From Psammoneis japonica (taxonomy: Eukaryota): DNA of 64,000 nt. The notes beneath the pieces are model-generated. The model made no database searches. It was not told the origin of the DNA and worked only from the letters and a program-made list of their open reading frames with translations. Location: NCBI GenBank assembly GCA_008632985.1, contig QPGO01000210.1, positions 14,365 to 78,364 of the forward strand, read 5' to 3'. The translations under genes and the position numbers were made by a program. Below, one piece after another: positions 2,377 to 64,000 of the stretch. Each line of letters starts with the position of its first letter. Position 1 is the first letter of the stretch.

Positions 2377-2402
2377 CTGATGGTTCTCCTTCTCTTTTCG
2401 GT

Positions 2403-39989: not shown

Positions 39990-42900
39990 GCACTGGTGCT
40001 ACTACATGTTGTATTGTGGGAGTTTGGTCTGCTGGATGGTGGACGGACGGCAAGGTGAAAAAATTGTCAGCAGCTGCCACAGCTGCTGGAGCAGTTTTCT
40101 TCCTTCTTGCGCCTTTTCCCACTTCCAATTTGGCATCCACTGAAATCACAATGATGTCATGGCTAGTTGGCATGGGCTGCAGCAAAATCAACAAAGGCAA
40201 TGAGTCAATTGGTTTTGACAGTTGCGGCAGCAAAGTTGTTGTCAACAGACGGAGCTTTTGCTTTTGAAAGTCTGCAGCATTGCAAGCAACAACAAACAAA
40301 AGCACCCAGATCACTGCAATTTCTGTCAGCCTGCCTGCATTGGCTCCCACCCAAAACTTGGCAATGGACAACACAAGCAAGCATTTGAAATGTGTGGACA
40401 AAACTCATCCTCCAGCGGCCAAGCAATCAATTGTTTGGTTTCTCTTGCAGCGTGTTCTTGAAAGTTCTTCAAAAGATGGCTGTCAAGGGCCAAAACTCTT
40501 CAAAGAAAGCTGTTGGCCTCATGCCAGTGATGGCAAGAAACTTGAGATGGGGTGCTCCTGTCAAGCCAGACAATGTCAGAGAACCAATGGGCGAAGCAAA
40601 GGTTGGCAGTTGGCAAGACTGTTGCAGAACGCTGGGGCAAGAAAAAAGCTCTGACCTCAAGCACAGCAAAGATTTTCAAGCTGGCACATCAGGAACACCA
40701 ATGATCTGGGTGTCGCACCTCCCATCAAGATTTTTTGAGTTGCAGCCAGGCAATTTTTTTTTAACCCAATGTCCAAGACTGCACCAATTTGTCCAGCCCA
40801 CATTTGTGTGAAACACTCAACGACAAACGCCTGCATTCCTGAAGTCAACATTTTCTCTGCCACATGGACAAGACTGCAGCATGATTTGTGTCATGTCAAT
40901 TCCTGAGTGAGGTGTTGCCTGCTTTCCTGGATCAAAATCTCTTCAGCCGTGCATCAAGCTGGAGATTCTCTTCCTTGCTCCAAATTTTTTGCTCCCTGTT
41001 GTTGCCATTCTCTGTTTTTGTGTGATGCCCCTGGCATTGCTCTTCCTCATTTGTCTTGACAGCACAGCATCTTTTGGCCCCACTCTTCACCAAGTGATTG
41101 CTGTTCAGTGTGATTGACATTTGCTTTCATTGCAGCGGCCTTGCTGTTTCTCCAAAGTGCTTTGCAGAGGGTGCAGTCTGATGATGGTCTCATTTGTCCT
41201 TGGTGCAAATGTTCTGGGTTCAGCTCCATGTGTGTGGTCTTAGCCGGCACACCCACACAATGCCAGCTGTCTCTGTTCTGTGGGTCCAACCAAGTCTTTC
41301 AGTTGTCCACATTGTGGACAATGTGGTTTTGACTCCAAAAGCCAGGTGCAGCATCACCTTTCTCATCACTGCCACACATCTGCTGTTCTCCCTTTTTGCC
41401 AGGAACACACTTGCACTCAAGGACTTGATGCCATCTTGTCCAACAACTGCACTGGGGAATCCCGTTGGAGAAAGGACACATGAGATTCTCTGCCATGGAT
41501 GCAAGAGCAAGTGTCAAGCTTTTCCATCATCTGGGCCATTGCTGCACAAGTCATTGCACACAGCAGGCTCCCTGCCTTTTGCTGGCACCATGCAACCAAC
41601 TGCCAGAGTGGGGCCTTGCAAGGACAGTCCTGAAAGTTCTGGGCTGCCGGCAGCCTCAAACGTTCCCGTGCATTGCATCAAACGTTCCCACCATGCCCAA
41701 AGGAAGATGCGCGCAAGATTTGAATTCCCTCCAATGTGCCGGGACCGTGCTGCTGTTGCTTCAAATGCAGTTGCATCTCCAACAAACACCACAAACCGCA
41801 GCAACAAACCATGAGCTGCCCATGTGCTTCATCTGCTGCTTCACTGCTCAAGGGTGCTGAAGAAAATGATGCAATGCCAGCAAAACATGCTGAAAGATGT
41901 CCAGAGCACATTGAACAGTGGGGAGAAAGCATCACAGCAGAAGTTGAAAGAAGTTGTCAGCAAGCTCAAAGTTGTTGAAAATGGCCTTTCCATTTTGCAA
42001 GTGATGATGAAAGGAGCAACTGTGACAGCAGCTCATGCCACTCATCTCCCCAACAATCAGTGCGTCCACAATCGTTTGAACAGTGAAAAAGCCCACAAGA
42101 AGCAAATGCAAGAGAATGTGAGCAGGAGCCAATCACAAGAATCAAAAGCTGCCAGCCCCAAATGTCCATCCAATTCCCTTGCTGTGCTGGAGGATGTGTG
42201 CCAAAGTGTGAACAACGAAGAAAATCAACCACCGAAGCCTCGACCTCCCCAGAATTTCACCTGCTGCAAAGCCCAGAGTCGCAGCTGCAGCACCACAAAG
42301 ATCTCCCAAAATGACACAGGCAATGTTGTGTCTTGGACAATGATGACAATGCGGTCGAAGAGCAGGTGGAAAGGGTCAAAAAGGACCAGAGGACAACTGC
42401 ACGCGTGAACGAGAGACGCACAAAAAAGGCTCATGAGGAGGTGTGCAAGTTTCTCATCAAAACAAGTCCAGTGCTCAAGCAGTTGCACCATGCTCACAGG
42501 ATTGCCTTTTTTGGACTACGATGAGACTCTCTGACAAATGCCAACATTGCAAGTGTCCTCCAGGCTCCATCGCGTCATTTTGTTCCCACAGCATGCACTT
42601 TCCAAATGTTGCGACACAGCCGAAAAATGACGTGGCATGATTGTGCACCGACCAAGTCCCCAAGAAGGACATCAAGCATTTCAAAAAACCATCTTAACAT
42701 GCATGACAGGTGAGCCAAATGACGCAGAGTGGGGCGAGGCATGGGGCTCCCAAATGGACACACTGTGGTGGTGCAAATGCCACGAAAAAGATGCCAACAC
42801 CACCCACGCAACAATCGACTGCACGAGATGATCAACCCACCTGTGAAGCTTTGACAAAGTGCAAACAACATCTTTGGTGAGCATGCAATTGGTGTAAAAT

Positions 42901-45687: not shown

Positions 45688-45829
45688 CGTCACATTGCAA
45701 TATCTCGTTTTTTTTTTCATTTGTGTGTTTAATGATCGGCGACATCCCTTGTTGTGGTCTGGCACAATAAATGTTCCGATGCCACGATTGCAATTAAAGT
45801 CAATGAGGCCCTGCAAGTTTGCGAATGAC

Positions 45830-48800
45830 TCCTCGCATCCCGAAAGATCTGCATGTTGCCATCACGCGCGACATGTCAGAAAAATGCGCGGCTGCTGCGC
45901 AGTTTCGCAAGATGTTTTGCTCGAACATCCATGACCTCACAATGAGACAGCAGCGCTTTACCTGCACCACCGCTGTTGACGATGGGCACCATCACAATGT
46001 CCCCTGCTCTGCCCCCACTTCTGCTGCTTCTCATTGTGGTGCTGCAATGTTGTGCCAGCTCACCTTGACAGTGCACTTTGGCGCACAGCATCTGGCTGCT
46101 GCCTGCGTGCGGTGTGCAAGAAAACGACATGGCGGGCAAAGCCTTCCCTCCCAGAAAATGAAGCAGAGGGCACCAGAATCAAGTCACAAGGAGAGCGCAA
46201 GATTGGCATCAGGGGAAATGGTGAAGCGGCCCCCAAAAAACTGCGCAGATCTGCCGCAACAACAAAGCGCAGCTGCGGGAGCTCTGGGCAGCTGCCTCGC
46301 TTGCTGAGTCAATGGCCGGCGGGATTGACAAACAGTTTTTGATGTCAGTGCACAGGGGGGGGTGCAGTCTGGTGGCANTTGCACCTCTTTCCTCAAGTCT
46401 TTGTCTCACAAAGATGCCGCAAGCTGGGGAGGGTCGAGGCTGCTCTGCAGCCCACGAGAGCTGCTGTCCATGTCAGAGGCGCCCTTGCCGCCGGCACAAG
46501 CCAGTGCAAGCTCTGTGGACAAGCTCCATCTGCCTGTCTGCTGCCTGCCCATGAACCTGCCAAATCAAGTGCTGCGACCAGCACTGCAGAGCCTTCAAGG
46601 GCACATGAAAAGCTGGGCCTGAAGCTCTGCGGTGCACTGGGCAGGGCTTCAGCCCCAAGCGATGTGCCTTTGGACTTTTTTCTTGTTTGTGAGCTGGTTC
46701 TTTGTCCAAAAAAGCTTTGTTTGTGCACCCATGCTGGCAGTTTTTTGAAGCTCTTTTGAAGGGCTGGCTTGAGAGTGTGCTGAATTGGAAACGGTGCGAA
46801 GCCACACAACAACCTTGCTCTGCCTGGAGCTGGAAAGCACCGCTGCCTCCATCTGCCTGTCTGCTGCCGGTCCATCAGCCTGCTCAATCCAAGCATGCAT
46901 GGTGATTGTCCCTTGTGTCAACAAGGGCTGTGGCCAGCACTGCAGAGCCTTGAAAGGCACATGGAAAAGCTGGGCCCCAAGCTCTGTGGTGCACTGGGGG
47001 CAGGGCTTCAGCCAGCCCCAAGTGAGGCAGGTGCCTTTGGACTTTTTTCTTGTTTGTGAGCTGGTTCTTTGGCCACAAAAGCTTTGTTTGTGTGCCCATG
47101 CCAGCAGACTTTTGAAGCTTTTGAAGGACTGGCTTGAGAGTGAGCTGTGTTGGAAATGGCGCAAAGTCGCGCAACCTTGTTCTGCCTGGAGCTGGAAAAT
47201 GCTGTTGGAGCTGCAAGCCACCTGCTTCCTTTTGCTGCTCAAGAGAAGCCACAGACCCAGAGACAGAGAAGCCCACAGCAGTTTTGACCCAAGCCTTCCG
47301 GGGTTCGGCATCAACCATGGGGCCACGCATGGAGCAGGTGGGCCTCAGAGTGGTGCTGGCCTTTGTGCAGCCCTTGTTGGGGCTGGAAGCAACAAGCTCA
47401 TCTTGTGGGGTGTTGCGCTGTGGTGGGCAGAGTGCACGTGGCAGGTGTCATGCCACAGCCAAGTTTGTCACCCTGCCACTTCTCTTTTGGCTGGTGGTTC
47501 TTGGGTTCTTCAGCACACAGTCATTTCTGTGGCCCTGGCTGCATCTGCTTTGACAACTGCAGCAGTTGTTCCCTCTGTGGCACAGAGCACCAGTGTGGGC
47601 TCTGGTGGAGTGTGCTCTTGAGAGCAGCGGCCACTTTTGTCTTGCACTTTGTGGGGTTGACCAGTTGTTTGTGATGTGCAAGGAGGGCCAGCATGAATTT
47701 GGCTTCTTCTGGGGGGCAGCTTGAGCCCCAACATCCCTGTGCTTCAAATGCCATCAGGAGGCTGTGCTGGTTCTTTGAAGGTCTTCTCAGCAAGAGCGTG
47801 CTTGAGCACAGCATCTCATGTGTTGTGCAAGCAAAGGTGCTGCCAGTCTTGCTTGCTGCTGCAATCAGCAGCAGCTGGGAAAAGCCCTGACATCATCTGA
47901 GATCGGAGGTTGTTGGCACACACCTGTGGAGACAGAAACAGCTTCCCAAAGCCATGCCAGAAGTGCCCCAAATCACAAAAACAAAACATCATCCAAGGTC
48001 AGACATTGAGCTGCCATTGTTTGTCATGCAGGGCTGCAAGCATCTCTTTCAACACACGTGCAAAAGCTGGACAGCTTGGTCATCACAGAGTTTCTTGGCA
48101 GTGTCCTCCAGAAGGCCACAGCTCCACCTTTTGTCCTCTGCCTTCAATCCAAAGCACAAAGCTTCAAGCCAGGCAAACTTCTTGGTGACAAGCACACTGT
48201 CACCAAGTTGGGCAACTTTCTCTCATGTTGGGAAGCTCTCAAGATGCTCCTCTTGGATCAACCCAGACTGGTGCCACTTTGCTGCAATGCCCAGCTGGGG
48301 CAGCTTGGCATGGAGAGGCAACACTTGGTTGACAAGATTTGTCACTTTCTTTTGGGCTCACGCTGAAGCAGAACTCCACCAAAGCAAAACACAGCCACAC
48401 GCAGAGCATGATTCAAAAACAGACAGGCTCCCGGAGGGGGGGGGGGAGGCAACAAGTGTTGCTGTCTTGGCATCCCGCCCACCCCTCTTTTTGAGTGGGA
48501 TTCTTTGCACCCCGTTTTCTTCTGTGTGCTGCTTGCTTGCTGCAGACTTTTGTTTGTGCTGGCAAAAGCATCTGGTGGGTGTGACCACACAAATCCAAAT
48601 TGCAACTTTTGAGCTGAGCACCACAGAGAGAACAGTCCCTTGATGTCCCAAGGCACCATCTGGCAAAATCAGCACATGAGATGGACCATCTCCAAATGTT
48701 GCTTCTGGCAGCCAGACAATCTTTGTGTTGCACTCACTGCAATGCAGTGCGCCCATTGCCCACCACTTCACTTTTTCATTTTTCTCAACATCTTGTGTTT

Positions 48801-50584
48801 TTCAACTCTGTCATGCACTTGGCTGCAAAAGTGCACAGCACGGCTGTGAAATGATGAGGTTCTGTCTTCCCAGAGTTGTGCTGCAATCAGGTGCGGAGCC
48901 TCGTGGATGCTCTAGAAAAATGGAATCTTGACAAAAACAGCTTCAGAAAAAACACTTTTCTTGTCATTTCTTGTGTCTGCAACTCTCTTTGTTGGCATCA
49001 ACAACAACACCAGAATTGCCTCCAATGCCACAGCAAAGAGAGTGTTTTTGGTCATTGCACACAACATCCACTTGGCTGCGCTTGTCACAACTTGAGCACA
49101 GCTGTCCAGCTGCAGGCAAAGGCCAACCAAACTTCTTTGCTCTCGTGCGGGGATGTCAAAGTGAAGTTGCCTGCAGATGCTGGAAACCATGTCTGCGGTT
49201 GTTGCAACAGCATTTCAGAGGGTGTTGTTGCCAAAAACATGTTTTGTCACACAAACAGCATCAACACAATGAAACAGGGGCACTCCTGCTTTGCTCTGCC
49301 CTCTCTTCTGGAATGAAAGAGAGAGCAACAGCTGACCAAAGCAGGTCTCTTTGCTTCCAGCAGCTGAGAGCAGCAAGAGAGCAGAGGATCTCCACAAAAC
49401 ACACCACAACACTGACAGACATTTGGACCTGATGGAGTCATGCAACATCCACTCCTTTCCACTGTGTTTTCCTGTGGCCACTGGACATCAACTGAAAATG
49501 CAAGAATCATCACAACAGAGAGCCGCGCCACCTTGACCTTGCAGGCTTGAGGTGTTCGAGTTGTTTTGTTGCTGCTCAGCAGCTGCTTCAAAAGCTCCTG
49601 ACAAAAAGTGACTTTTTCAACTTCCAGGGCTGAACTCTCAGGAACAAACTGTGTTGGCATGATGCATCAAAACAAGGAGAGGCTCCAAGACCTGGTCTCG
49701 TGTGCACGCGGCCAATGTCAGAACCAAAGCAATGGGCCCAAAGAGAGAGATGTCACAACAGCACCCACTGATCCAGCAAGAAGCACATCAGTTGATGACA
49801 GCTCATGTTGCCTTTAACAGTGAACACCAAGTCCTCCCATGATCTGGATGAAAATCAGCTGCAGACAAGAAGCCCCCCCACAACTTGGGTGTCGTTTGAA
49901 AAGTGTGGCCATTTGTGCTGTCAAGATCATCGCCATTGTTGGTGTCTGCATCAGATGGAGCATGACAGCATGGGCCCAAGGGGACAGTGAAGACTTTGTT
50001 TTCCACTCAGGAATGAAGTCACGCTGAATGTTTTGCAAGGAAATGAGCCCAGGTGTCAGTCATTTGAAAAGCCAAGTGTGTGCTGCCAACTGGAAAGTCA
50101 GGGTCGGAGCAGATGGAACCCAAGGGGTTTGAGCTGGTGTTTTCACAGAAAAAATGACAAAGGCCAGAAACAAATTTGTTTCCACCCACACTCAAAATGG
50201 TTTTCCTCCTCCCAGCGTCAGCTGTGCTTCGACAAGAAGACACCAGAAAAACAACAAGTGGGGGGGGGGGGGGCGGCGCAAGCTTCAGGAAATGGTTGCG
50301 CTGCTGTGGATGCTGACATCAACAATGACGAGAATGATGTGATGATGACTTGGCTGGTGTCGAGGATGCAGAGGAGGTTGACACCGCAGCTTCAAACAAC
50401 AGAGCAACATGGTGGTTCGCTGATGATGTGTTGATTGTTGTTTCTGCGATGCGTGCTCTGTGTGGGGGTGGATCGGCACTCGTGACTGACAGATGAAAAA
50501 ATCGAAATGTCGCCGATCCAATTGCCCCCCTCGACAATGGTGCAACAAGCTTGTTGCTCCTGCTGTCTGCTGCACTGCACAGCA
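45830..50584. repeat. Heavily decayed TA-depleted tract with an internal ~300-bp direct duplication; insertion target of the copia
   Basis: Essentially no TA. 46579-46850 resembles 46935-47200. The tract continues on the other side of the copia (56874-57150). One N at 46378. Confidence 0.75.
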
Positions 50585-50792
50585 TGTTTAAACACTCAAA
50601 AGCAGATCAGCAGCGGCAGCTGGTGATGACTGGTGAGTGTTGGGGCGATCAAACAGGTGTTGCAATGACAGCTGTGGCAAAATTGTGAGGATGTGAGAGG
50701 CTCCTCGTCTCTCATTGAAGACCGATGTTCATGAGTCATTTTTGGGACAGTGAGTCATAATGCAATGACGCATGAAATATGACATCTTCACA
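50585..50792 (-). repeat. 3' LTR (208 bp)
   Basis: Direct repeat of 56661-56867, adjacent to the PPT TGAGAGGGAG (minus strand). Confidence 0.95.
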
Positions 50793-50861
50793 CTCCCTCT
50801 CATTTTGATCTCATGCATCTCAAAAATGAAGGTTTGACGCACTTTGCGCGCGAATCCACTT

Positions 50862-53800
50862 TTAAAGCACTTCAAATACCTGCCAACCCATTGCTTTCGG
50901 TCGCAACCAAAGCAGAACGTCCAGATTGACCGCTTTAGTTAGAAAATCGGCCAATTGTGCAGCAGTGTCGATAGAGTGGATTGAGATCTCCTTTCGACTG
51001 ACACAGTCACGGAAATGGTGCAGCTTCACGTTGAGGTGCTTGGTGCGCGGTCTGTGCTCATGTGCCTTCGCCATTTCCAGCGCGCCGCTGTTGTCCTCAA
51101 AAACTTTGCAGTGCATCTTCGCCGTCGTCGAGTTGATTGGACACCCTCGCAACTTCAGTTCCTTCAACATTTCCATCACAGGGATGGCCTCTCGCAAGGC
51201 ATGCGACAATCCGGTGTGTTCACTTTCGGTGCTGGACAACGCCATTTCAGTCTGTAGCTGAGACTTCCAAAGGATCGGACAACCAGCGTAAGTGATGACA
51301 TACCCGTGACGGGATCTTGCGGTGTCTCTGTCGCTCGCGGCTTCCTTTCGATCCCAATTGCCGCTGAAGTCGGCGTCTACGTACACCTCCAAATCCTTTT
51401 TGGAATCTGGTTTCAGAATTGCACCTTTGTCTCTCGTGGCATGCAGATGTCTGCCTAGCCACCGTATGGCCTCGCCATGTTCTACCTTCGGGTCTGCAGT
51501 GAATCTCGCGCACTGGTGCGCAATGTATGCGATGTCGCTTCGGGTGCATTTCTCCAAGTAATTCAGCTTACCGATGATCGACCTGTAATTGAAGGAATTG
51601 TCAAATGGTCTTGATTCTGAATGCCTGGATAGGAGCTTGGATGAAGCTGCAGGTGTGTCTTTTCCGACGACACTCGGTTTATCAAGTCGCAAGTCTTTCA
51701 GAATCTGGTTGATCAGGTGGGGTTGCGTCAGGTGCATCGTTCCATCCGACTTTCTGGTGATGTTTATGCCAAGGAAATCTTGAATGTCGCCTTCCACCGT
51801 GACATCTAACTTTGCTTGCTTGATTTCCTCTATGATCTTGTTGATCTCAGATTCATCAGGGCCTGCGAGCAAAGAATCATCCGTGTGGAGAAGGCAAATC
51901 GTTTTTCCGCGATAAAACACACACTCGTCGACCTTGGATTGCTCGAAACCCAACTTGTTGACTAACTTGTCCACGAGACACTTGTTCCAGACTCGCCCTG
52001 CCTGCTTCTGCCCGTGTGCATTCCGATGCAAGCGTAGGACATAATCCTTGGTGTTGGCGCCTTCGAGCTCGAATCCGGACGGAATCTCCATGTAGAGATC
52101 CTTTTCGACCGGTGCTTGAGGAAAAGCGAGGACATAATCCAGTTGCTTTGAATGCCACCCATGTGCTCCCACTAAGGCAAGCAGCAGCTGCATTGAATTT
52201 CGTGATGCAACCGGCGCACACGTCTCATCGTAGTCTTTTCCTTTTCTCATCCTCGAGCCGTCAATGTTAAGTCGCGCTTTCCACTTCTTCACCTTTCGGG
52301 TGCGCACGTCTCGCTTTCGCTTCATTTGCCACACTGCAGGTAGCACTTTTCTGTCTTGTTTCACCTGTGATCTTGGAATGATGGAGTGGTTTCCATTTTC
52401 CATTTGATCCTTCACCTCTTTTTGCATCGCCTTGAGGAACTCCTTGCGGCCCGGTTCTTTCATGGCTTGGTGCATGTACATGGTGTCAGGATCTGCTGAT
52501 GCTTTGTGGGCAAGGAGGGGATTTGCGACTTCTTCTTGGAGGGCTTGCGAGTCTCGAGGATGCAGTGCGGCCAAGCACAGCAGTTCTCCTTCGACGCCTC
52601 CTTCAGTGTCTTTCTTGATCTCAGTCTCCATGGACTCAATCAATCTGCTGACCGGTTGGCTCTTGCGCCCTGATCGTGTCACTTTTGGTTCAGCATGACC
52701 GTCTCGTGCTTGATCAGACTCGCCCTCATGTGGAGGTGCTTCTAGAGATTCAGTCCTTTCGGATGCGTTGGCCTTGTTGTGATTGGGCTCTCGGCGCATC
52801 TCTCGTTCGGACACCGATTGGCTGTCGGTTACTGCAGTGTCGCCATCTTGTGGCCGTGTTAGTTGGTCAGCCCAACGAATGGTTCTTCGTTTCTTGCCTT
52901 GCCCCGCTCCCTCTGAAGCTCGTGCGCGCTTCTTCTTGGGACGATCCGGAGCACTTGTGGGAGCCGTTTTGGTCTCGCCACTCTTCTTGGTTCCTTTTGT
53001 CTCCCTCTGAGCAACGAACTTGGCTTTTACTTGCCACAGAGAATCGTAAGTGTCTTGCTTCAGCGTGTGGAATGATGGATCAAATTTTACGTGGAACTGT
53101 GGACTCACCAGTGCCGACTCTCGGTCGAGTGCCAGGGCCACGTTCTTGCCATGTTGTGGGCTTCGGCCTGAGCACATTCCAACCCTTGATCTGTCTTTCC
53201 ATTTGTGGTGCGGCAGACCTGATTGCAATGTGGAGTCCAATGCGTACACTGGGCAACCAAATGGTTTCCAGTGCTTTGGATTGGTGGCAACTTTCGTGTT
53301 GGAAAACAGCTGGAGTGGGCTTGATCGGTCTTTGTGTTGGAGGTTGGGCGCATGATTGATGGCGTCACAGGCCATGCGAATCGCGCAGGGCCATAAATTT
53401 GCGGCAATGCACTTCTTCCAGCGGCTGTTGGCATGGATCAACATTGTTCGGGCGAGCTCTTGGAGCTCTCGGATCCGTCGCTCCGCCGTGCCATTTTGGT
53501 GATGAGCGCCCACGGCAGCGAACGTCAGTTGTTGCCCTTGTCTCCTGCACGCATGCACCCAGTCGTTGGCCTTGAACATTCCGTTGTCAGCATGGCAAGC
53601 CTGAACGGTCACGCCACAACTCTTTGCATGCAACTCGAAAGCTTGTTTTCCCTCTGACGTTTCAGCTGCCGTTGCTGTCTTTTGCAGACAAACGCAACCC
53701 AATTTGGAGTGCTGGTCGACATAGACTGTGGCGCACTTGCACCGTTTTGTGGTCAAGAAGCCCGTCATTTGTGCGATTGGACCCGGTGTCGGAGACACCA

Positions 53801-55010
53801 ATTGATCCACTGAGACAATTTGGCCTGGTTTTGTTGGAGCTTCTATCTTGGCATCATCGTTCCGTGCCTTGTCGCGCCATTTTCTCTTGGTCGCCTTTGC
53901 GCACAGGCATGCCGAGCAAGCAGGTACGTTGCACTTTGCGAGCCGTCTTGGTAGAATGCCCATCTTTGCCATCCATTGCAACTTTGTGAAGCCAATGTGC
54001 CCAAATTGTTGGTGGCACTTGAGGAGCAGCGCCGCATCCGTGTCTGGCTGTCTGTCTTCTTCATCTTCCACCACTCGTGGCGGTGGAGCAGTCGGCACTC
54101 CCTCTGAGTTGCCACTGCTTGTTGGCCCATTTATATCAAACGTTGCTCCCAGTGGGCAGACGCGCTGATCGGTGGCCAACCCTGTCTCTTGCGCTGCCTC
54201 CTGGGGTTCAGGTTGCCATTCCTTGGCGATGCTTTTTGCATCGCATTGGACATCCGTCTCTTCCTCGTCCTCGTCATCACTGACGACTGCTGCATCTAGT
54301 GCAAGGAGAGGATCGTCTGCTTCTTTCGCTGGATCGATGTCCGCGTCGGCGCAAAATGCTTCGAACTTCTGATAACCCGGTGCTAAGCGGAAGGTGGCTA
54401 CGTTCGTAGTCTCGCTCAACGGCATAGTCAGTCGATGCTTTCGTTGGTTCCAGAACAGTGTGACCTCTTTCGAGTTTGTCTCTGATCCAGTTCCTTCGAT
54501 CGGCTTGTTGTCTCTCAGTGCCTTTGCCCAGTGTTGGGGACTTAGCAGGCGGACCTTGCCGTCAGGTACGTAGAATGAGTTGGGGATTACGAACTTGTGT
54601 GTCTTTCCCTCATCGTCACTCCATCTCCATGGCAGGGTGCCAACTTTCACACCTGTAGTTCGAGAGCCACCGAATCCCTCAATGGCTCTTCTTGTGTCTC
54701 TCAGCTCGCCAATGAAGTCTTCTGTTCGGTCGGACATGCAACCTGTGCATCTGTTGTCCACTCCGACTGGCCCAGAATCGGTGTCAAACGTGACGGTGTG
54801 CTCTTTTATGTGTTTCCCTTCGGCTTGCATGGCCACCATGGCTAGCGCCATAATCGAGCCCCATGTTCGCCTCTTCTGTCTGGGTTTCACCTTTGTTGCG
54901 GCACGTTGGATCTTGATTGTTCTCCCTCTTCTGGGTTTGTTGGCAGTGGTGATGCTTTCTACAATCTGCTCAATGCTGGTCCCCATCTTGTGTGTGCCTT
55001 CAGTGAGCAT
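50862..55010 (-). CDS. pol: Copia pol polyprotein (protease, integrase, RT, RNase H); open but missense-damaged
   Basis: 1382-aa ORF with GVDNRCTGCMS (protease), H..FGH..C..C (integrase HHCC), VSVDQ/HADNG/QNG.AER (DDE), KARLNIDG, HTDD (for Y.DD), VYVDADFSG and FEDNSGA. Confidence 0.93.
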   Translation of the reverse strand: MLTEGTHKMGTSIEQIVESITTANKPRRGRTIKIQRAATKVKPRQKRRTWGSIMALAMVAMQAEGKHIKEHTVTFDTDSGPVGVDNRCTGCMSDRTEDFIGELRDTRRAIEGFGGSRTTGVKVGTLPWRWSDDEGKTHKFVIPNSFYVPDGKVRLLSPQHWAKALRDNKPIEGTGSETNSKEVTLFWNQRKHRLTMPLSETTNVATFRLAPGYQKFEAFCADADIDPAKEADDPLLALDAAVVSDDEDEEETDVQCDAKSIAKEWQPEPQEAAQETGLATDQRVCPLGATFDINGPTSSGNSEGVPTAPPPRVVEDEEDRQPDTDAALLLKCHQQFGHIGFTKLQWMAKMGILPRRLAKCNVPACSACLCAKATKRKWRDKARNDDAKIEAPTKPGQIVSVDQLVSPTPGPIAQMTGFLTTKRCKCATVYVDQHSKLGCVCLQKTATAAETSEGKQAFELHAKSCGVTVQACHADNGMFKANDWVHACRRQGQQLTFAAVGAHHQNGTAERRIRELQELARTMLIHANSRWKKCIAANLWPCAIRMACDAINHAPNLQHKDRSSPLQLFSNTKVATNPKHWKPFGCPVYALDSTLQSGLPHHKWKDRSRVGMCSGRSPQHGKNVALALDRESALVSPQFHVKFDPSFHTLKQDTYDSLWQVKAKFVAQRETKGTKKSGETKTAPTSAPDRPKKKRARASEGAGQGKKRRTIRWADQLTRPQDGDTAVTDSQSVSEREMRREPNHNKANASERTESLEAPPHEGESDQARDGHAEPKVTRSGRKSQPVSRLIESMETEIKKDTEGGVEGELLCLAALHPRDSQALQEEVANPLLAHKASADPDTMYMHQAMKEPGRKEFLKAMQKEVKDQMENGNHSIIPRSQVKQDRKVLPAVWQMKRKRDVRTRKVKKWKARLNIDGSRMRKGKDYDETCAPVASRNSMQLLLALVGAHGWHSKQLDYVLAFPQAPVEKDLYMEIPSGFELEGANTKDYVLRLHRNAHGQKQAGRVWNKCLVDKLVNKLGFEQSKVDECVFYRGKTICLLHTDDSLLAGPDESEINKIIEEIKQAKLDVTVEGDIQDFLGINITRKSDGTMHLTQPHLINQILKDLRLDKPSVVGKDTPAASSKLLSRHSESRPFDNSFNYRSIIGKLNYLEKCTRSDIAYIAHQCARFTADPKVEHGEAIRWLGRHLHATRDKGAILKPDSKKDLEVYVDADFSGNWDRKEAASDRDTARSRHGYVITYAGCPILWKSQLQTEMALSSTESEHTGLSHALREAIPVMEMLKELKLRGCPINSTTAKMHCKVFEDNSGALEMAKAHEHRPRTKHLNVKLHHFRDCVSRKEISIHSIDTAAQLADFLTKAVNLDVLLWLRPKAMGWQVFEVL

Positions 55011-55326
55011 GGTCCACCCTCGTCGTACCCGGTGCCATCTCTTCCGTTTCGGCGTGCATCCGGGCTTGTCAGTTGGGGTCGGTCGCGTAGAAGTAAATGT
55101 AGATCAGGACCATCGCTGTCGACAGTAAAATTAGAGCATGAGCTAGCAGCTTTTGTTCAATCACTCGTTTGTTTTCAAATGAGAGCGACGTCATTATAAT
55201 GGTCATGTGGTTGCAGGCGAATGCCTGCCAGGCGAAGAGCGCAGTTGCCTTGATGATCGCAAAACACTTCGACGCCATGGTTTCCAACCCATGTCCATCA
55301 CAACCGCTGCAGCCGTGCTCAAGGAG

Positions 55327-56638
55327 TCATTGAGACTCCTCGCCCGAGTCCTGCCCGTCCACTGCGGCTTGGCATGCTTTGTTGAGCTTGAGCCGTGGGT
55401 GTCCGTCAGGTCCCTTCTGTTTCTTGTGGGGTGGTGCTGTAGACTCGTTTTTCTGTGGCTTGTTCTTGCCTTCTCTGCCTTCACATTGGGAGGGCTTGTG
55501 GACACGCCACTTGCCAGAACACTTGCCGCCGGCACTCTTCTCACACCAACAGCATGCGGTGCCTTTCCAAGTTCTCGGGTTGGTTGGCTGGTCTCGTTTG
55601 GGACGCCTGTGTTTCTTCAACCACGCAGGCTTCCCGTCTTTCTGAGCACCTTGAGACGCGTCGTGGTCTTTTCCCTTGTTTCCCGTCTTCTTGTGGGATT
55701 TCTTGCTGAGGGCCTCCACTTGAGCTTGGAGAGCCAAGATCTTTTCTTCAGACGCACTGGGGGTGTTCCACAGCAATTTCTGAAGCAGGTTCTTGCACTT
55801 GTTGCCTGCGAGGTTCATAAAGTTGCGACGCCGACATGTCCTCGCCCTCTTCACACTGTTCTTGCTTGCGCTCGATGCACTTGACAAAAACTTTGTCGGA
55901 AGCAGCCAGGCACCCCTTGAAGAGGTTCGCAAGCAGGTCCTCAGTGGTTTCGCCTCGTGACTTAAGGGCGGCAAGCAACAATGCCACGTGCTGGTTGAAC
56001 TTCAAGATGTCATGACCGATCGTTGGGAGACAGAGGTCGAGTTGACTCAATTTCGTTCGGATCGCACTCGTCGTGGCGTTCGCATCGAGGTGGGATTCTC
56101 TGATGATGATCTTGAGAAGGAGATTTCCGGACATACGATCTCCGATCTTGCACTCTGATTCCCAGATCCTCACTTTATCCTTTCCGGCTTTCGATGTGGA
56201 GTTCATCAGGCAGCGATGCGCTAGACAGGTGTCTTGCGCTGCGCGACTCTCGTTGCCGATGTGGGATTCTTCAAAGCCCCGGATCCTCTCTGGGTCCATC
56301 TGACCACAGTCGGTCAACAGATTAGACCTCTCGGATTCCAGGATGTCTTCGTGGTCTTCTGGGATCATGAATGTTCCGTTCTCATCATTCCACCCAAACT
56401 CTCTGGCTCTGTCTTCCAAGTTCTTGAGGAACTGGCACAGGTCTCCTGGTTCACAATCGAACAATTCCTCGTCCAGCGGCTTGGTGGCTTGCTCAAAAAG
56501 CTTACGACCCGCACTCGAACGACAATCGATGACCGTGGTGATCGCTTGTGCCGGAGCCAATGCAAATGGGACATCTTCGGGAACATCTCCTAGCTCCGGT
56601 CCAGAAACGGACGAAGCGTCTGAAGAGGCGTCAGACAT
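55327..56638 (-). CDS. gag: Copia gag (1-nt frameshift at ~55820)
   Basis: PFALAPAQA, SGNLLLKIII, DILKFNQHV and LLANLFKG in the first frame. The second frame carries the C-terminal knuckle WKGTACCWC...WRVHKPSQC. Confidence 0.85.
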
Positions 56639-56645
56639 GTTACTC

Positions 56646-56660
56646 AGCGCAGAGGAAGCG
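56646..56660 (-). other. Putative primer-binding site complementary to the D-arm of initiator tRNA-Met
   Basis: The + strand AGCGCAGAGGAAGCG(TG) directly abuts the 5' LTR and resembles eukaryotic tRNA-iMet GGCGCAGCGGAAGCGUG (recalled from memory). Confidence 0.65.
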
Positions 56661-56867
56661 TGTTTAAATCTCAAAAGCAGATCAGCAGCGGTAGCTAGTG
56701 ATGACTAGCAAGCATTGGGGCGATCAAATAGGTGTTACAATAACAGCTGTAGTAAAATTGTGAGGATGTGAGAGGCTCCTCGTCTCTCATTGAAGACCGA
56801 TGTTTATGAGTCATTTTTGGGACAGTGAGTCATAATGTAATGACGTATGAAATATGATATCTTCACA
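56661..56867 (-). repeat. 5' LTR (207 bp)
   Basis: Direct repeat of 50585-50792; retains most TA sites. Confidence 0.95.
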
Positions 56868-57453
56868 ACAGCATCTGCCGTGATGTCCCTGTCGCTCTGG
56901 CCCCTGTCTATCTGGCCGCAAAAGAAGTGAACTTGTTGATGGTCCTGCACATGTTGTGGACATGTAGGATGCTCTTGGGCTGGATGCTGCACGGTGTTGG
57001 CGCTGACGCATCGCACACTCATTCGCCACACGGTTGAGGTGTGCACTCTGTTGACTGCGGGCTGCGACATGCTGCGCATTGCACAATTCTCTTTGTTTCG
57101 GCCTGCTGGTGCGGTGCTGCGTTCGCCAGAAACGAAATGTACAGTGGGGGGCAAACGTGGATGTAATGGTTCTATGTGTGCGTGCAAGAACACGCGATAA
57201 GCTCTTTCATTTATTACTGTTGTTCTTATGTCTACCCTCTTCCGTTGGTCCTTATGTAGAGGGAATTCATGGATCGTTAAAGGGTGCGTATCACGTATCA
57301 TGTATTTCACGAAAGACAACGCAAGAGCAGGTACTTTATGCAGCCGATGCACAGGTGATGGTCCGTTTTATTTCATTGTCGAGAGATTTTGGTGTGATTT
57401 AGATTGTTGCCGTAACAGGGATACGTTCGAATCCTGGCGCTAGTATACATCCC

Positions 57454-59626
57454 TCACTCTCCGAAGTAACGGAAAGGCGCGAAACCCGCTGGCTTGGACG
57501 ATCCCATGCCGGGTAAGATATCCTTGATCATCCTCGTACCTTGGGAAGTTCCATCTGTGACCCAGAGCTCTTCCCCATTGTAGGTAGTATGTGCGCTGAA
57601 GAACAGCTGATCTTGGAAAACGACTAAATTTCGTGGAGAGGATCCTTCGGCACCCGGTCTGATATCTTTGACCATAGTAGTGCCTTCCTTGCTCCCATCA
57701 GAGCGCCACAGCTCCCTTCCATATGTGCCGTCATAGGCTGAGAAGAATAGGTTGTCGTGGAACGAAGCAAATTCCCCCGGAATATACTGGGGATAACGGC
57801 CCGGGAAGACTTTGACCAAATGGGGTGATAATAATGATTTTTCGTGGATGATCACCCATAGCTCAGTTCCAAGCTCGCCGTCGTCAACCAAGAAGAAAAT
57901 CTTTCTGCCTACCACAGTCGAGCCCATAGGTGGCTTTTGGAATGACTTAAAAGGGGCACTGTAATATCCGGAATGAGAGACCCGCAACTCGTATCGGCCT
58001 TGGCCGTTGGTGGCCACAAAGAAAAGAAGCCCCACAAGATTATCTGGGTTGTACACGGTGAGTCCTCTCGGCAATGAGTCCTTCTTGCCTTCAGCTATCT
58101 CCAACATTCTCAGAGCGCGACTTCCGTCAGATCTCCACAACTCCCAGCCATGTGCGCTATCGAATGCTCGGAAGAATAAGCGGCCCCGGAATGATGTTAG
58201 ATCATTTGGCGTATAATCAGACGCATACTGTCCGGGCACGCGACTTAATGTTTCGCCATTCTGGGTGACAAACAGGCCCCTGTTCTCGCCAAAAAAGAGC
58301 TTCTCGCCAGCAACAGCAAACTCAGAGAAGCCTGAACAGTAAGGGAAGAAACGATAAGTTCCTTCTTGCATTCCATCTGTTACCCACAGGTCGACTAAAG
58401 AGGACTTGGTGCTAGAGGATGCGACAAAGTAGGCCATGTCCTTGAAGACGGTAAAGCGCCTGTTTATGGTCATGTATGCGCCTGGGTAGAGAGTCTTGAT
58501 CATGACAGTACCTTTGGCGCTGCCATCAGATTTCCAAAGCTTGACACCATCTTTGTCCTGACTGGCGAAAATGATCTGATCTCCGAAGGACGTCAATGTG
58601 TTTGTCAAGATGTAACCCAGTCCATGTGAGACATCTTTCACTAGTTTTGTTCCTTCGGAAGATCCATCTGTCACCCACAACCCGGGTCCCCTCGTACGAT
58701 TTCTGGCAGAGAAGGACAACAATGGCTTGTACACAGAAACCGTGGCACCAGTGACCTCTATGGCAGAAAAATCCTCTTTACAACTTCATAATAGGCACGG
58801 AAATCAAACCTGCGCTCACCCAGGTCGCCAGTCATTGTCTTTGTTATGCTACAAAAATTTACCATCGTAGCTGAAGTGAGGGAACGTGATGGACATTCCT
58901 TCCCCAGGTCTTTAGATGCGTCAAGGTCAACCAGGCGCACAACAGTAATTGGAGAGGATGTCAATGCTCGAAAGAAGATAGTGAAGGTGACTGAAGTGCC
59001 AATTTGCGCTACGGTCGGATTCGCTCTGACCAAAAAAGGCTTGTAAACGGAAACTGTTGCACCAGCATCCTTCACGGCGGAATACTGCCCTTCGACTTGA
59101 TAATAGGCACGGAATTCAAACCTACGCTCACCGACGTCGCCAGTAATTTTCTTTGTAATGCTGCATGTATGCACCATCGTAGGTGAGAGGGAACGTGATG
59201 GAAGGCCGCATTCCTGTCCCAGGTCTTCAGAGGTGTCAAGGTCATCGAGACCTACAATTTTGATGGGATAGGGCGTCGCATATCTATGCCGAAAGAGGAT
59301 AGAGAAGGTGACGGAGGTGCCGATTTGGGCTTCAGTCGGATTCGCACTGACCTCAAAGCCAAGAGCTGGTGCTGGCAGGGTCTCACGATGGAAGGAAGGT
59401 CCCTGAGAGCATGAAATGAATGATTTTTTAACAGATACGATTGAATGAGAACACCATGGTAAAGGCATTCGTACGCACTCAGTCCGGCTTGTTAGCATAC
59501 CTGCTGGAGGACCTGGAGTCCTCGAAGGTGATGGGACGCCACGTCGTGCGTGTCTACCTGTCCGATTGCGTTTTCCACAAAAACGCACAGCGTAACAACA
59601 ATGAAAAGAAAAAATAGGGATGACAT
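57454..59626 (-). CDS. ELWxxDGT-repeat protein, copy 3 (frameshift at ~58775)
   Basis: Collinear with copies 1 and 2, including the signal exon, intron, ELWRSDG/ELWVTDGT repeats and the RYFGE end. Confidence 0.87.
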
Positions 59627-59949
59627 TGTCACATTGTAGCAGCATCTCGGTTTCGCAATTTTTGTTTTCTATGTGCTATGTTTGTTGTGGTCGATGATCG
59701 GCGACCTCCCTTATGCAGTCTGGCACAATAAATGTTAGACAAGACAATGTCCGCCGTCGCGGGACTTCTTGCAGCACCAGTAAGAACACTGCCAGATGAA
59801 AACACGATTGCAATTAGAGACAATGAGGCCCTGTAAGTTTGCGAATGTCTCGGATGTTTCCACGACCCACGACCCACGACACAAAAGATTGACTCCATCG
59901 CTTGGGTGCAATCTTCTCATTTCTAATCACCATTGTTCCAATCGTCAAG

Positions 59950-62900
59950 CTTTGATCAAAGAGTCAATGCATTGTTTGCACTTGTGCAGCCGATGCAGCT
60001 GCTTTGGAGGCTTTTCCGAGGCCACGCTTCAAAGTGGTTGTTCAGGCACAGTGCCTTTTCGTCCGCTGCAATGACGTGAGCCATGGCCAAAGCTGATTCT
60101 GGCACAAGTGAGATGGAGTCAATTCCTTGTTCCACAAGAAATGTGGCAATGTTGTTGGGCTCATTGCTGGGGAGCTTGTCGGCAAAAGCCAGTGAGTGCC
60201 ACGATGTGAGCCAGCGCTGGCTGCTCCAGCAGCTGACTTTGCCGCAGGGCTGCTCTTGTCAAACAGCCTTTCCAGCTCACTGTCATCATTTTCTGAACCA
60301 AAAAAAAGCTGTGCCAAGTCATTGAGTCCATTGAAAAAACAGTCAAAGAGAGCAGTGAAGTCATCAGCAGCTGGGGTGCTGGCAGGGGCTTCACAGCACA
60401 CTGCACCCCAAACTTCGAGGGTTTTTTGTTGCCCTTGCTTTGGCCCCCTCTTGGCAAGAACATCAGTCACAACACAAGGGAACAACAAGCTCTGCATTGT
60501 TCAGGCACCTGCTTTGTTTTGAGCATGAGACAGACCCTTGTGCTCAAACTCAAATGTGTTTTTGAGCTTTTGGCAGAGACATCACACAGCTCTCCAAGAA
60601 GCCAGCTCCAATTTTCTTCATCCAGCTCAAAGACCTTGCCACTCACAAGACAACAGTGCTTGTTTGGTTTGAAGCTGCTGGGGTGAACAACAGCCAGGTG
60701 AGGATGAAAGGGAGCAGTGGCACCCCCCCACGCCTTTGGAGAGCTTTTCAATGAAAAAGTGCTGGGGGTGGGAATCATTTCAGGCTTTTTCACAAACCAC
60801 CACACACAACAGCCTCACTTGCTCAATTGAGAAAGATCACCAAATTTGGCACAACCACAGAACCTTGGTAAGCTGGCCCAACTCCAGTGATGGACAGATG
60901 ACAGCTCAAAAGAGCAGAGCTGGGATCTCCCAAGATGGAGCTTTGCCCTGGTTTTGGAAGGTCATCAATGCTGAACTCAGTGTGCTGAGTGTCAGCAACT
61001 CCATGGTGGGTGAATCTGCTGCTGCCATTGAGCCAGTTTGTTGCACACAAATTGCCAGCTTCAGGAGAGTTACAGGGATGAACAGCGCAGGTTTGCTTTC
61101 ATCCAACACAGTGGTTGATGACAGCAGGATCCTCTGCTTTTTCAACTGTGGGTTTGAACAGCTCTGGTGCTCATTGGGGCCCCATCTTTCTGCCAACAAT
61201 GGACTGTCAAAGACCACACAAGCTGGCAACAACAGCAATGCCATGAAATCCCACATGTCAGGGTTGAGTGCAAAGGCAGTGCCCAAACTTGCAGCATCAC
61301 TCCACACCATTGTCAGGTGATGGTGCAACCAGCAGATGCTCTCCAGGATGGCATCTGCCGCTGCCGCTTCCCCCCCAGCAACCTCACTTGAAGATGAGGC
61401 TTGCTGCCTGTCAGAGGATGTGTGCAGCTGTCAGATCTTCAGCGGTTTCCAAGCTCTGTGTGGCAATGGAAGTTTCCACACATTGCTGCCACACACACTT
61501 TCATGCACCACTTCAGCATTTTGTGAATGACATCTTTTTGCCATTTTTGCTCAGCTTTGCAGCTGCACCATGCTGACTTGCACTGCAATGCCCAATGCCA
61601 CAACATTGGCATTTTTTGGTGTGTGCCTCATGTTGCACATGCACACATTCCCACATGACTTTGGTGGCATTTTGCATCATTTTGCAGTCACATGCATTGC
61701 TCCCAGCACACAAACATTGGATCTTGTGGGCAGAACTCATTGGGCCCACATCACATGGAGTCCTGGCTGGGGCTGAAGTGTGCACATCAGCAGAATTTTG
61801 TTTCTCTCACTGGCAGAGGACCTTTCTTCTATGCACATGCTGACCACGCAATGCACTTTGCTGCCTCAAGATGAGTTGTCAGTGTTGGAGATTAAAAAAG
61901 AACAAACAGGGGGTGCAAAACACAGTGAGCCACACTGCCCTGTCTTTGAGCAATGCACAAACAACAGCAAGGCAGAACATGTGCTCACACACACCACCTG
62001 GCTCCAGCCCCCTCTTCAGGCCAAAAGAAGGCCAAGCTGTTCTTGCAGATTGCTTTGATTGAGAACCATGCTGCAGGTGCTGGTTGTTGTGGCAAATCCA
62101 TCACAAAAACTTGCACCCCAACTGGTGCCAACTCTTGAGCAAGCTTGCTGAGATGGAAGGTGTCAAGGGCTGGGCCTTGATCAACAAGTCCATTGCTGTG
62201 AAGGCTTGTGCTGCATTGAGCCAAACAACCCTTGAAGCAATTCTGGCAGAAATTGTTGAAATGGTCAGAGTGACCCACACATCCAATCATCATGGTGGAA
62301 ACCAGACAAATTCTTTTGCCAACAGGAGTCAAGGAACCAACTCCAACAGAAGAAACCAACAGCCCAACACTGCATGTCCCGTGCACAGCATTTTACAAGC
62401 AGCATCAACAAAGCTGTGCCAACCGTGGTCAACAATGGCAAGGCTCCAACAGTCACAACCAGAGCAATCAGAAGACTCAGCCAAACCATCAACACAATGC
62501 AAGGAGTTGTTCTCATCAGTTGGGAAGAGAACAATCAAGTTCAGAGTCAACCTGCTCATTCAACTCAAGTTTGTTTGTTTGTTTGTTTGAACCCAAGCAA
62601 TGCTGACAGCACATTGTTGCAAGACATCAACAAAATCTCTGATGTGTTTGAAGTGATGAGCACTGTTCAAGAGCCCCAACCAAAAGTGCTGGACCCTGCA
62701 ACAACTGCAAAAGTGACAGCTCAGTTTCTCAATGATGGAACAGGCCAGAGCAAATGTCACCTTGGCCTGCTCAACACTGGGGCACGTGGTGATTTTGTCA
62801 AGCGTGATGCACTCAAGTCTGTTCCTCATTCCATCAAAGGGGCTGTGGGTGCAAAAGTCAATGGAGGGTGCAAAGCGATCAAATCTTCCCAGCTTCCCAA

Positions 62901-64000
62901 CATTGAAGTCAAGCTTCTGGAATTTACAAGCATGAAGAAGCATCTGCCAATGCTTGCATCAAAGAGAAGCAAGGCAACTGGGTGCCTTGATGTTGTCATT
63001 GGCGCTGCTGAGCACACCAAAGCAATGGCATTGTCCGCAACTTCAAGACAGACTGCCTGTTGCACAGGATGATGTTGCTGTCCCAACGTGTCCAGAAGGG
63101 TTGATGGACCAAAACAAGGCTTTGCCTGACTTTGTGCTGGCTGCCACACAATGTCAGACTTGCACCATTTGAAGCAATGAGTGTGTGAGCAGCTCAGTTG
63201 TCAGAAGATGGCATCATGGTGCAATGATTTGACAGCAGAAAGTCAAAAAGAAGATCTGTTGGAATTGATTGGATGTCATCCCAGTTCAGTTGATGAAGCT
63301 CTTTGTGAAGCTCCTGGACCTCTGAACATGCTCTGAGTCAAGCCTGGTGCTGAGCCTTGTTGTGCCAGAGCTTGTGTCATTCCTCAAGCTCTTTGTCCCA
63401 TTGCAAGGGAAGAAGTTTTGATGAGCTTGAAATTGTTGGCATTGTTGCTTGCAATGTTGCTTTTAAGTGGGGCAAGCCATGTTTGTTCTCACCAAAGGAA
63501 AACAGTGGAGTCCAACATGTCTTAACCAACTTGAAGCACCCCAACTCATGTCTCACAAGTCACCCTCATCTGATGTCAAACCCTGATGATGTGATTTGGA
63601 AAATCAACAGGTTTGCATGGGTGCTTGCTTTGATCTCAACCACATGGCCATCATCATTCTTTTGTTCTTGACTGCCAGTCAAGCAAGCTCTGAGCAACCA
63701 TCTTGCCATGGGGCAAGTGTTGTCAGCCACCCTCAACTCCCTCAAGGAGCCACGCCTTCAAGAAGTGACATCTTTCAAGCTTTTGTGAGCCAGTGCTTTG
63801 GTGATGCAGAAGACACCGCTGCTTTCTTTGACAATGTTCTTTTGTTTGCAAAATCAGCCTTTGTTCAGCACCTTCTTCAAAAACTTGTCAAGAATGACCT
63901 TTGCACACACATTGAAGGAACTTTTCTTGCTGGTGCCAAGGTTGGCATTTTTGGGACATCATGTCAAAAGGAAGGGTGTCACGCCTCAGAAGCAGAAAAT
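59950..64000. repeat. Heavily decayed TA- and CG-depleted tract
   Basis: Almost no TA or CG over 4 kb; TG/CA-saturated. Confidence 0.8.
62600..64000 (+). mobile_element. Degenerate Ty3/gypsy pol remnant (protease + RT)
   Basis: GLLNTGA (~62764, for LLDTGA), PCLFSPKENSGV..LTNLK.PN (~63480), TILPWGKC (~63697) and FFDNVLLF (~63824, for Y.DD). RT follows the protease directly, as in gypsy elements. Confidence 0.7.

Follow-up and report, generated by a model that had tools for sequence, protein, structure and literature searches.

A 64,000-nucleotide stretch of the genome of the diatom Psammoneis japonica (assembly GCA_008632985.1, contig QPGO01000210.1, positions 14,365 to 78,364; hereafter the window) carries a Ty1/copia long terminal repeat (LTR) retrotransposon whose two LTRs differ, one indel apart, only where TA, CA and TG replace one another. 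It also carries tracts of several kilobases from which the dinucleotide TA has virtually disappeared. These sequences very probably record a regional mutator that acts at the DNA level and turns 5'-TA-3' into CA or TG in silenced or foreign DNA of this diatom. They demonstrate the direction of the change, its TpA specificity, its use of both strands, its sharp regional limits, its progress to saturation and its independence from reverse transcription.

The retrotransposon was delimited by a repeat finder and by alignments and lies on the minus strand (Table 1). Its LTRs are direct repeats that begin with TG and end with CA, and a purine-rich tract (the reverse complement of CTCCCTCTC), read from the sequence, stands just inside the 3' LTR at 50793. 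From 55103 to 50862 the pol frame runs through 1413 codons without a stop, and it contains the reverse transcriptase domain of Ty1/copia elements (RVT_2, residues 885-1110, E = 2.3e-40). Integrase precedes reverse transcriptase, as in Ty1/copia, the gag_pre-integrs part of this order (residues 333-372) being matched below the cut-off (20.8 against 28.4 bits). The named relatives returned by the protein search come from Fragilaria and Attheya. Because the same six bases, ACAGCA, stand at both ends, the element is a single insertion; recombination between two elements did not produce it. The copy is partly hypermutated and non-functional, since a gag-like open reading frame (ORF; 56704-55748) lies in another frame than pol and out of register with it, all contigs that cover 55819 are one base shorter there than the window, and half of the conserved tyrosines are lost.

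Table 1 Features of the window that bear on the loss of TA (o/e, observed-to-expected ratio).
Feature	Position	Strand	Remarks
Second copia pol relic, unrelated to the first element	1..2391	+	pol residues 947-1202 at 1-768, 1205-1413 at 1693-2391
Saturated TA-free, CG-poor tract	27916..33298		9 TA, 35 CG in 5.1 kb
Saturated TA-free, CG-poor tract	40013..42894		composition
Saturated TA-free, CG-poor tract adjoining the left LTR	45960..50584		2 TA, 81 CG in 4628 bp
Target-site duplication, left copy	50579..50584		ACAGCA, 6 bases, intact
3' LTR (left in the window)	50585..50792	-	208 nt; hypermutated copy, 3 TA remaining
Internal region of Ty1/copia	50793..56660	-	o/e: TA 0.26, CA 1.45, TG 1.24, CG 0.86
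5' LTR (right in the window)	56661..56867	-	207 nt; keeps 15 TA
Target-site duplication, right copy	56868..56873		ACAGCA, 6 bases, intact
Saturated TA-free, CG-poor tract	59925..64000		continues past the window end

Re-alignment of the two LTRs gave 18 differing columns, amounting to 15 sites, and no other substitution elsewhere in the pair. At seven sites the left LTR has CA where the right has TA (left positions 50617, 50654, 50678, 50730, 50763, 50771 and 50783), at five it has TG where the right has TA (50622, 50632, 50662, 50667 and 50676), and at two it has TG where the right has CA (50634-5 and 50638-9); the last site is an indel, AAACACTC on the left and AAAT-CTC on the right. An earlier note on this DNA had given the same count of 15 sites in the same classes, and its further statements, that all five CpGs are identical and that three TA remain in the left LTR, hold as well (TA 3 against 15, CG 5 against 5). 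All 14 substitution sites fall at TA, CA or TG. There are thus 14-15 TA changes and no other substitution between the LTRs, and a two-sided binomial test of the 12:0 split in orientation gives p of about 0.0005. This is not the general spectrum of window DNA, since three pairs of gene paralogues in the window show 47-50% transversions (222/464, 181/381 and 208/414) that are not concentrated at TA. In the 5' LTR at most two sites have been hit (CA at 56709-10 and 56713-14), and a 1-base deletion is found at 56669, where other copies of the family have TG (depth 192 of 500) or TA (depth 85). We take the right LTR to be near its state at insertion; by this comparison the left LTR would have been mutated at about 14 of 17 TA.

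Support from reads, which the earlier note had called for, was sought in the contigs of one public run, possibly the assembly's own sample. A contig at single-copy depth (56) covers 50400-50697 and carries the left-LTR letters, with two other letters, and a second (depth 55) covers 56838-57100 with no differing letter. Between them they reproduce the opening 110 bases of the left LTR and the final 30 of the right. At 50559, just left of the element, the single-copy contig has seven bases (CTGCTGT) more than the window, so that a short CTG-rich repeat differs there in copy number.

By itself the LTR pair is neutral as to direction. A process like repeat-induced point mutation (RIP), or a methyl-cytosine-driven one, could have changed C to T at CpA/TpG in the right LTR while the left kept the ancestral CA and TG. 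Diatoms carry DNMT4 enzymes related to fungal RID, according to Hoguin et al. 2023 (PMC9998398), and the TA o/e of the left LTR, 0.20, is close to that of the rest of the element. We polarised the coding interior against 133 related copia sequences (120 proteins plus translated metagenome loci). At the 28 columns with Tyr in at least 80% of outgroup copia, the window copy has 13 Tyr, 9 Cys, 5 His and 1 Phe; the nine derived Cys codons are all TGY and the five derived His codons all CAY, the ancestral Tyr being TAY. In ordinary protein evolution Tyr is replaced mostly by Phe, and the outgroups have 71 Phe, 23 Cys and 20 His at these columns, with 33 of their 43 Cys/His belonging to just five sequences. 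Among 67 substitutions of the window copy at conserved columns, 23 are single steps from TA to CA or TG, namely Y→C (9), Y→H (5), I→M (ATA→ATG, 5), V→A (GTA→GCA, 2), I→T (ATA→ACA, 1) and L→S (TTA→TCA, 1). Changes in the RIP direction were not found: there was no Tyr or Ile at the conserved 20 His, 10 Cys and 11 Met columns, and no Ile, Val or Leu at the conserved 29 Thr, 47 Ala and 28 Ser columns. In the codons whose ancestral form is fixed by the outgroup proteins, TA has thus given way to CA or TG, as the earlier note had proposed; that note had named a CA/TG consensus, i.e. ordinary RIP, as what would overturn it, and the interior codons came out opposite.

Other features of the element are equally hard to reconcile with a RIP-like process. 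The pol frame has no stop in 1413 codons, although RIP makes TAA and TAG. Intact relatives have a TA o/e of 0.59-0.80 and a CG o/e of about 1, so the TA-poor state is the derived one. To explain the two sites at which left TG faces right CA, both LTRs would have had to change at the same two of seven CpGs, for which the probability is about 1 in 21.

The copia family is multi-copy (contig depth 180-1085 against about 55 in the flanks), and its other copies speak for the same direction. Comparison of the public-run contigs at 80% likeness gave 192 between-copy variant places, 162 of them transitions. We classed 40 of the 192, none of them inside the LTRs, into 31 sites: 12 show TA versus CA/TG, 9 are double differences of CA versus TG, 7 show CG versus CA/TG, 1 is another transition and 2 are transversions. 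At 51055-6, 51886-7 and 52219-20 the window and the contigs carry His versus Cys, or the reverse, at an ancestral Tyr (Tyr in 90/133, 128/132 and 122/126 outgroups, respectively), and at 53511-2 GTG and GCA occur in window and contigs where 10/10 outgroups have Val. Because the outgroups have Tyr or Val at these codons, each of these double differences is explained, as far as the codons tell, by two independent single hits on one ancestral TA and not by CpG decay. A 2-bp inversion as the source of the swaps was dropped, as Tyr ancestry explains them. Twelve sites could be polarised between the window and the multi-copy contigs: 11 had a TA-containing ancestor, one is a CpG→TpG change (53849) and none runs from CA/TG to TA. 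With the interior this makes 23 and 11 A→G or T→C changes at TA and none reversed. In the 270 bp beside the left LTR a multi-copy contig keeps TA at 50868, 50893, 50904, 50963 and 51064, where the window has CA or TG; the left end of the window copy is therefore derived. On all these counts we regard a RIP-like origin as extremely improbable.

Further LTR copies would have polarised the LTRs directly. A 45-base LTR core had no match in the genome and viral contigs searched, and a metagenome scan for copies of the same family gave 14 loci of only 32-73% protein identity, 73% also being the best value of the protein search. Of eight metagenome loci scanned for direct repeats, two had them, as terminal repeats of 123 and 127 nt, each pair being 100% identical and hence uninformative. 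Summed depth is higher on the right LTR bin (993 against 382), which fits a TA-type family LTR and is too crude to serve as evidence.

With a multi-copy family, one LTR could have been overwritten by gene conversion from a diverged member instead of being mutated in place. The changes private to the window are contiguous, from 50585 to about 51064, and an intact target-site duplication is compatible with conversion. All 15 differences are nevertheless of TA type, unlike ordinary divergence between subfamilies; the donor would itself be a product of the same mutator, so that the event is only moved elsewhere; and the adjoining host tract is saturated in the same way. Conversion is in our view very unlikely, though less remote than a RIP-like process.

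The nine CA/TG swaps among the 31 listed sites also bear on the letters themselves, as a modified base could be read discordantly on the two strands. A systematic base-calling or assembly error, or a modified TpA base read as C or G, might be further suspected because the only run with the locus may be the assembly's own sample and because the window contains one N (46378). Yet the single-copy contigs carry the same left-LTR and tract letters, other copies have different outcomes fixed at high depth, and Tyr has likewise given way to His or Cys in proteins of unrelated metagenome origin. Heritable de novo mutations of the same type have moreover been scored in lines of the chlorarachniophyte Bigelowiella natans (Mettrop et al. 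2026, bioRxiv 10.64898/2026.01.13.699255). An artefact is thus barely credible.

The loss of TA extends far beyond the element. In the four tracts of Table 1, pooled (16.3 kb), the o/e values are 0.02 for TA, 0.18 for CG, 1.83 for CA and 1.76 for TG, compared with 0.60, 0.99, 1.15 and 1.18 in the genic DNA of the window; TpA depletion is thus clustered and goes together with CpA and TpG enrichment, and if the genic shares of TA and CG are credited to CA and TG, the tract values are nearly recovered. From 45959 to 48913 there are 2954 bp without a single TA. The tracts are even in base composition and consist of complex, non-repetitive sequence with no mutual similarity within the window. Their edges are sharp to about 50-150 bp, the adjoining genes are normal and the gene paralogues have ordinary spectra, so that the effect is regional and spares its neighbours. 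The window-wide TA o/e of 0.42 is consequently an average that mixes two compartments.

To the right of the element, 270 bp (56868-57139) contain only 2 TA and look like the remainder of the tract that ends at the left LTR, which places the copia insertion inside that tract, about 270 bp from its right edge. The element itself is intermediate in composition (TA 0.26, CG 0.86) when set against its intact relatives, which indicates that TpA is lost faster than CpG. The earlier note had proposed a targeted mutator in repeat DNA. Its targeted, TpA-specific and regional nature is borne out; repeat targeting as such is not shown, because the tract adjoining the multi-copy element is at single-copy depth where sampled and the tracts are mutually dissimilar in the window.

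A Pfam scan of 83 stop-free tract ORFs found no retroelement or viral family. The sole match above the cut-off was a weak PEP-utilizers_C fragment (PF02896, 24.2 against 22.8 bits) at 60045-60500 (-), in the tract that continues past the window end; it resembles the phosphoenolpyruvate (PEP)-binding C-terminal part of a PEP synthase-like enzyme (PDB chain 2ols_A, E = 3.7e-5); to judge from such remnants, the tracts may hold dead genes other than transposable elements. The longest tract ORF had no match in an Atlas look-up. As TAA and TAG are absent from the tracts, their ORFs are probably accidental.

Three paralogous gene segments on the minus strand without a Pfam match, about 80% identical (24800-27821, 43278-45775 and 57172-60194), all adjoin a TA-free tract on their right side. 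Such a tract also lies to the left of the second (about 0.4 kb off) and of the third (adjoining), and the three segments resemble islands of normal DNA amid mutated surroundings.

Both strands are used. The polarised events comprise 22 A→G and 16 T→C changes on the sense strand, and these are interleaved. Strand-coordinated clustering was tested and rejected (runs test, p = 0.05 for the LTR only, p = 0.95 for the interior, p = 0.50 for all events). The changes are restricted to TpA and yield TpG or CpA depending on the strand, with the caveat of 50870 (A→G off TpA) and 52307 (a possible T→C at TpG). The Pol-eta-like WA→WG signature raised in the earlier note is unlikely and was dropped, as AA→AG changes are essentially absent. 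Selection against TA was likewise dropped, since it cannot explain the loss of conserved Tyr.

The TA that survive in the saturated tracts are not a random sample. Eight of the 20 stand in TTAA, compared with 48/1302 in genic DNA (Fisher p = 5e-7), and the 5' base is T in 14 and A in none. TTAA is the one context that reads T-T-A on both strands, so its survival fits an activity that works on one strand and dislikes a T two bases before its target. The enrichment may hint at which sequences the mutator prefers.

Similar transitions could in principle arise before the element integrates, if its RNA underwent ADAR-like A-to-I editing or if its single-stranded cDNA was deaminated during reverse transcription. 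In retroviral replication the 5' LTR derives from plus-strand strong-stop DNA, and it is the 3' LTR whose minus strand stays single-stranded longest; the spared LTR here is indeed the 5' one. ADAR also prefers a 5' U, as stated in the Discussion of the B. natans preprint (bioRxiv 10.64898/2026.01.13.699255). Such editing, however, predicts a single polarity, whereas both strands are hit here in interleaved fashion (p = 0.5), and RNA editing cannot make two LTRs differ. The same loss is found in long tracts with no retroelement family in 83 ORFs and with sharp edges against genes, and the changes seen in B. natans took place in single-copy DNA already resident in the genome (same preprint). The difference between the LTRs of a single insertion and the loss of TA from non-retroelement DNA show that the mutator acts on resident DNA; neither RNA editing nor the editing of single-stranded cDNA can therefore be the main cause. 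Overall, we consider pre-integration editing very unlikely.

A regional mutator of resident DNA would account for these observations as follows. The copia element would have inserted recently into a tract that was already saturated. After insertion the 3' LTR would have lost about 14 of 17 TA and the interior about half of its TA, while the 5' LTR, about 270 bp from the tract edge, would so far have been almost spared. Enzymatic deamination may turn the adenine of TpA into inosine, to be copied as G; alternatively, a modified thymine might pair wrongly with G. The activity would work on one strand at a time and poorly where a T precedes the T, leaving TTAA refractory on both strands. The tracts may be methylated heterochromatin, in which CpG would decay to TpG/CpA separately and more slowly; such separate decay of methylated CpG in silenced chromatin is the simplest explanation of the CpG loss. 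That CpG decay and TpA loss are independent is indicated by copia relatives in metagenomes (L013, L011, L009 and L012), which have a CG o/e of 0.04-0.47 and little or no TA loss.

Several points weigh against this interpretation. For the polarity of the LTRs the evidence comes from the interior, the 270 bp alongside and a single three-state site, and not from an LTR consensus. At 51570, 52035, 52831, 53952 and partly 54425 it is the window that has TA; these sites are synonymous or unpolarised, and their direction could be the reverse. The seven CG versus CA/TG differences are mostly unpolarised, and 51339, 51363 and 52307 might be T→C at TpG. With two or three such possible changes, a strict specificity for TpA is not established, and the A→G change at 50870 lies outside TpA. 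The contigs stem from one sample. The sparing of the 5' LTR has closeness to the tract edge as its sole correlate. Finally, the adenine-deaminase chemistry suggested above is borrowed from the hypothesis of the B. natans preprint.

The signature recurs in other copia sequences. Another copia pol relic in the window shares 33-37% identity with the first element, and its 16 conserved Tyr columns hold 6 Cys, 6 His and no Tyr. This relic is split by a TA-rich, AT-rich piece (51 TA in 1001-1500, GC 0.35) that looks like a later insertion that was not hit. In environmental copia proteins, the conserved Tyr are now Cys or His at 16/19 columns in P0104 (which also has V→A 5, L→S 3, I→T 3 and I→M 2), at 10/15 in P0221, a sibling 82% identical to P0104, and at 7/17 in P0015, compared with 1/19 and 0/21 in the controls P0006 and P0012. 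At shared sites P0104 and P0221 have His versus Cys, and Cys/His versus Tyr. Most environmental members of the copia clade are without Tyr→Cys/His damage. To judge from these proteins, the damage is all-or-little per copy, as expected of hypermutation rather than of slow drift.

The rest of the window is varied. It encodes a DUF389 gene (21680-23980), whose best named matches are Seminavis, Attheya, a Bacillariaceae metagenome-assembled genome and Cylindrotheca, at a best identity of 53%, as well as family-3 G-protein-coupled receptors, pentatricopeptide repeat proteins and an ORF with six HA (helicase-associated) domains at 4446-5966 (-). The last contains 201-bp tandem repeats (4536-5431, 90-93% identical) and has a TA o/e of 0.09-0.27 with normal CG (0.91) and ordinary differences between the repeats. 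Next to it, 6001-7000 has the opposite bias (TA o/e 1.25-1.45, CA/TG 0.5-0.96) and includes an 80% identical direct repeat (6304-6596 / 6674-6999). At 15824-16966 a GC-rich (0.58-0.60) block of tandem repeats lies in long overlapping ORFs on both strands, without a Pfam match.

The footprint has practical consequences for annotation and dating. By the genetic code, T→C and A→G changes cannot create stop codons and do remove TAA and TAG. Because no stops are created, dead elements keep very long open frames (here 1413 codons, despite the loss of 14/28 conserved Tyr), and gene and transposable element annotation will therefore call hypermutated elements intact. The LTR divergence of 15/207 (7%) likewise badly overstates the age of the insertion, which we judge to be young since substitutions other than the TA type number zero.

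With its footprint seen in a diatom, on retrotransposons and at saturation, TpA hypermutation looks less like an oddity of one species and more like a widespread defence of eukaryotic genomes, one that runs opposite to fungal RIP. Diatoms offer transformable model species and many genomes; if the footprint is present there, the enzyme, its targeting and the link to methylated chromatin become testable. We tentatively suggest, with rather less confidence than we place in the mutator itself, an enzymatic diatom defence, shared with that of the chlorarachniophytes or convergent on it, that erases TpA from silenced mobile or foreign DNA until it is exhausted. If so, the system may be old within the SAR (Stramenopila, Alveolata, Rhizaria) supergroup, and its strand-by-strand action with a non-T preferred before TA would be as expected of a DNA adenine deaminase. 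Together with CpG decay it would produce an unrecognised 'TA-free, CG-free' heterochromatin, making up a quarter of the window.

Among known systems, fungal RIP is similarly targeted and regional, makes dinucleotide-specific transitions on both strands, inactivates mobile DNA and can saturate. RIP, however, converts CpA to TpA, reduces the GC content and introduces stop codons. The direction here is the opposite: TpA is destroyed, GC stays near 50% and no stops are created. As to a trigger by sequence duplication, the copia family is multi-copy, the adjoining tract is at single-copy depth where sampled, and the tracts share no similarity within the window. The diatom DNMT4 related to RID is described without an assigned function in the available text of Hoguin et al. 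2023 (PMC9998398), and nothing in our data points to it. ADAR hyperediting and APOBEC3 share with the present case the deaminase-type clusters of transitions in retroelement copies, and ADAR the preference for a 5' U. They edit RNA or single-stranded cDNA before integration and leave one polarity and identical LTRs, whereas the present changes fall on both strands, set the two LTRs apart and extend to non-retroelement DNA. The decay of 5-methylcytosine at CpG likewise gives an excess of CA and TG and CA-versus-TG differences between copies, and it probably explains the CpG loss in the tracts and the CpG→TpG change at 53849. It cannot, however, remove TA, the LTR CpGs are intact (5/5), and the twin sites polarise to TAY and not to CGY.

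The closest parallel is B. natans. The earlier note knew of no described equivalent, but the preprint of Mettrop et al. 2026 (bioRxiv 10.64898/2026.01.13.699255) describes one; it was the only equivalent we found in the literature, with no report from a diatom, in a search that lay outside subscription journals and preprint supplements. In the mutation-accumulation lines of that preprint, 231/302 mutations fell in integrated giant-virus and virophage regions, and 230/231 of these were A→G or T→C, all on TpA according to its text. The rate was about 6e-7 per site per generation, in some lines only. The B. natans genome contains 124 clusters that are depleted in TpA and enriched in CpA+TpG, mostly unannotated, and its low-TpA coding sequences are enriched in reverse transcriptase and DDE domains. 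The authors propose adenine deamination, with an ADAT2-like candidate (same preprint).

At the level of sequence, the P. japonica case appears to match B. natans TpA hypermutation in every respect: the changes are A→G and T→C at TpA, giving TpG or CpA by strand, and they are confined to regions, the neighbouring genes of the window being spared just as the rest of the B. natans genome mutates normally. The two also differ. The host is here a diatom (Stramenopila) and there a chlorarachniophyte (Rhizaria), the word 'diatom' not occurring in the preprint's text; the targets identified are here LTR retrotransposons and there integrated viral DNA. Our tracts are saturated (TA o/e 0.02), whereas the B. 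natans region of nucleocytoplasmic large DNA virus (NCLDV) origin has a Rho of 0.45. They are also depleted in CpG (o/e 0.18), which the available parts of the preprint do not mention for B. natans; nor do those parts describe TTAA refractoriness, His/Cys twin outcomes or LTR asymmetry. In B. natans the mutation rate was measured, whereas the evidence from P. japonica is the footprint. The phenomenon itself has thus already been described; what is new is a diatom as its host, an LTR retrotransposon as its target, its saturation and its coupling with CpG loss.

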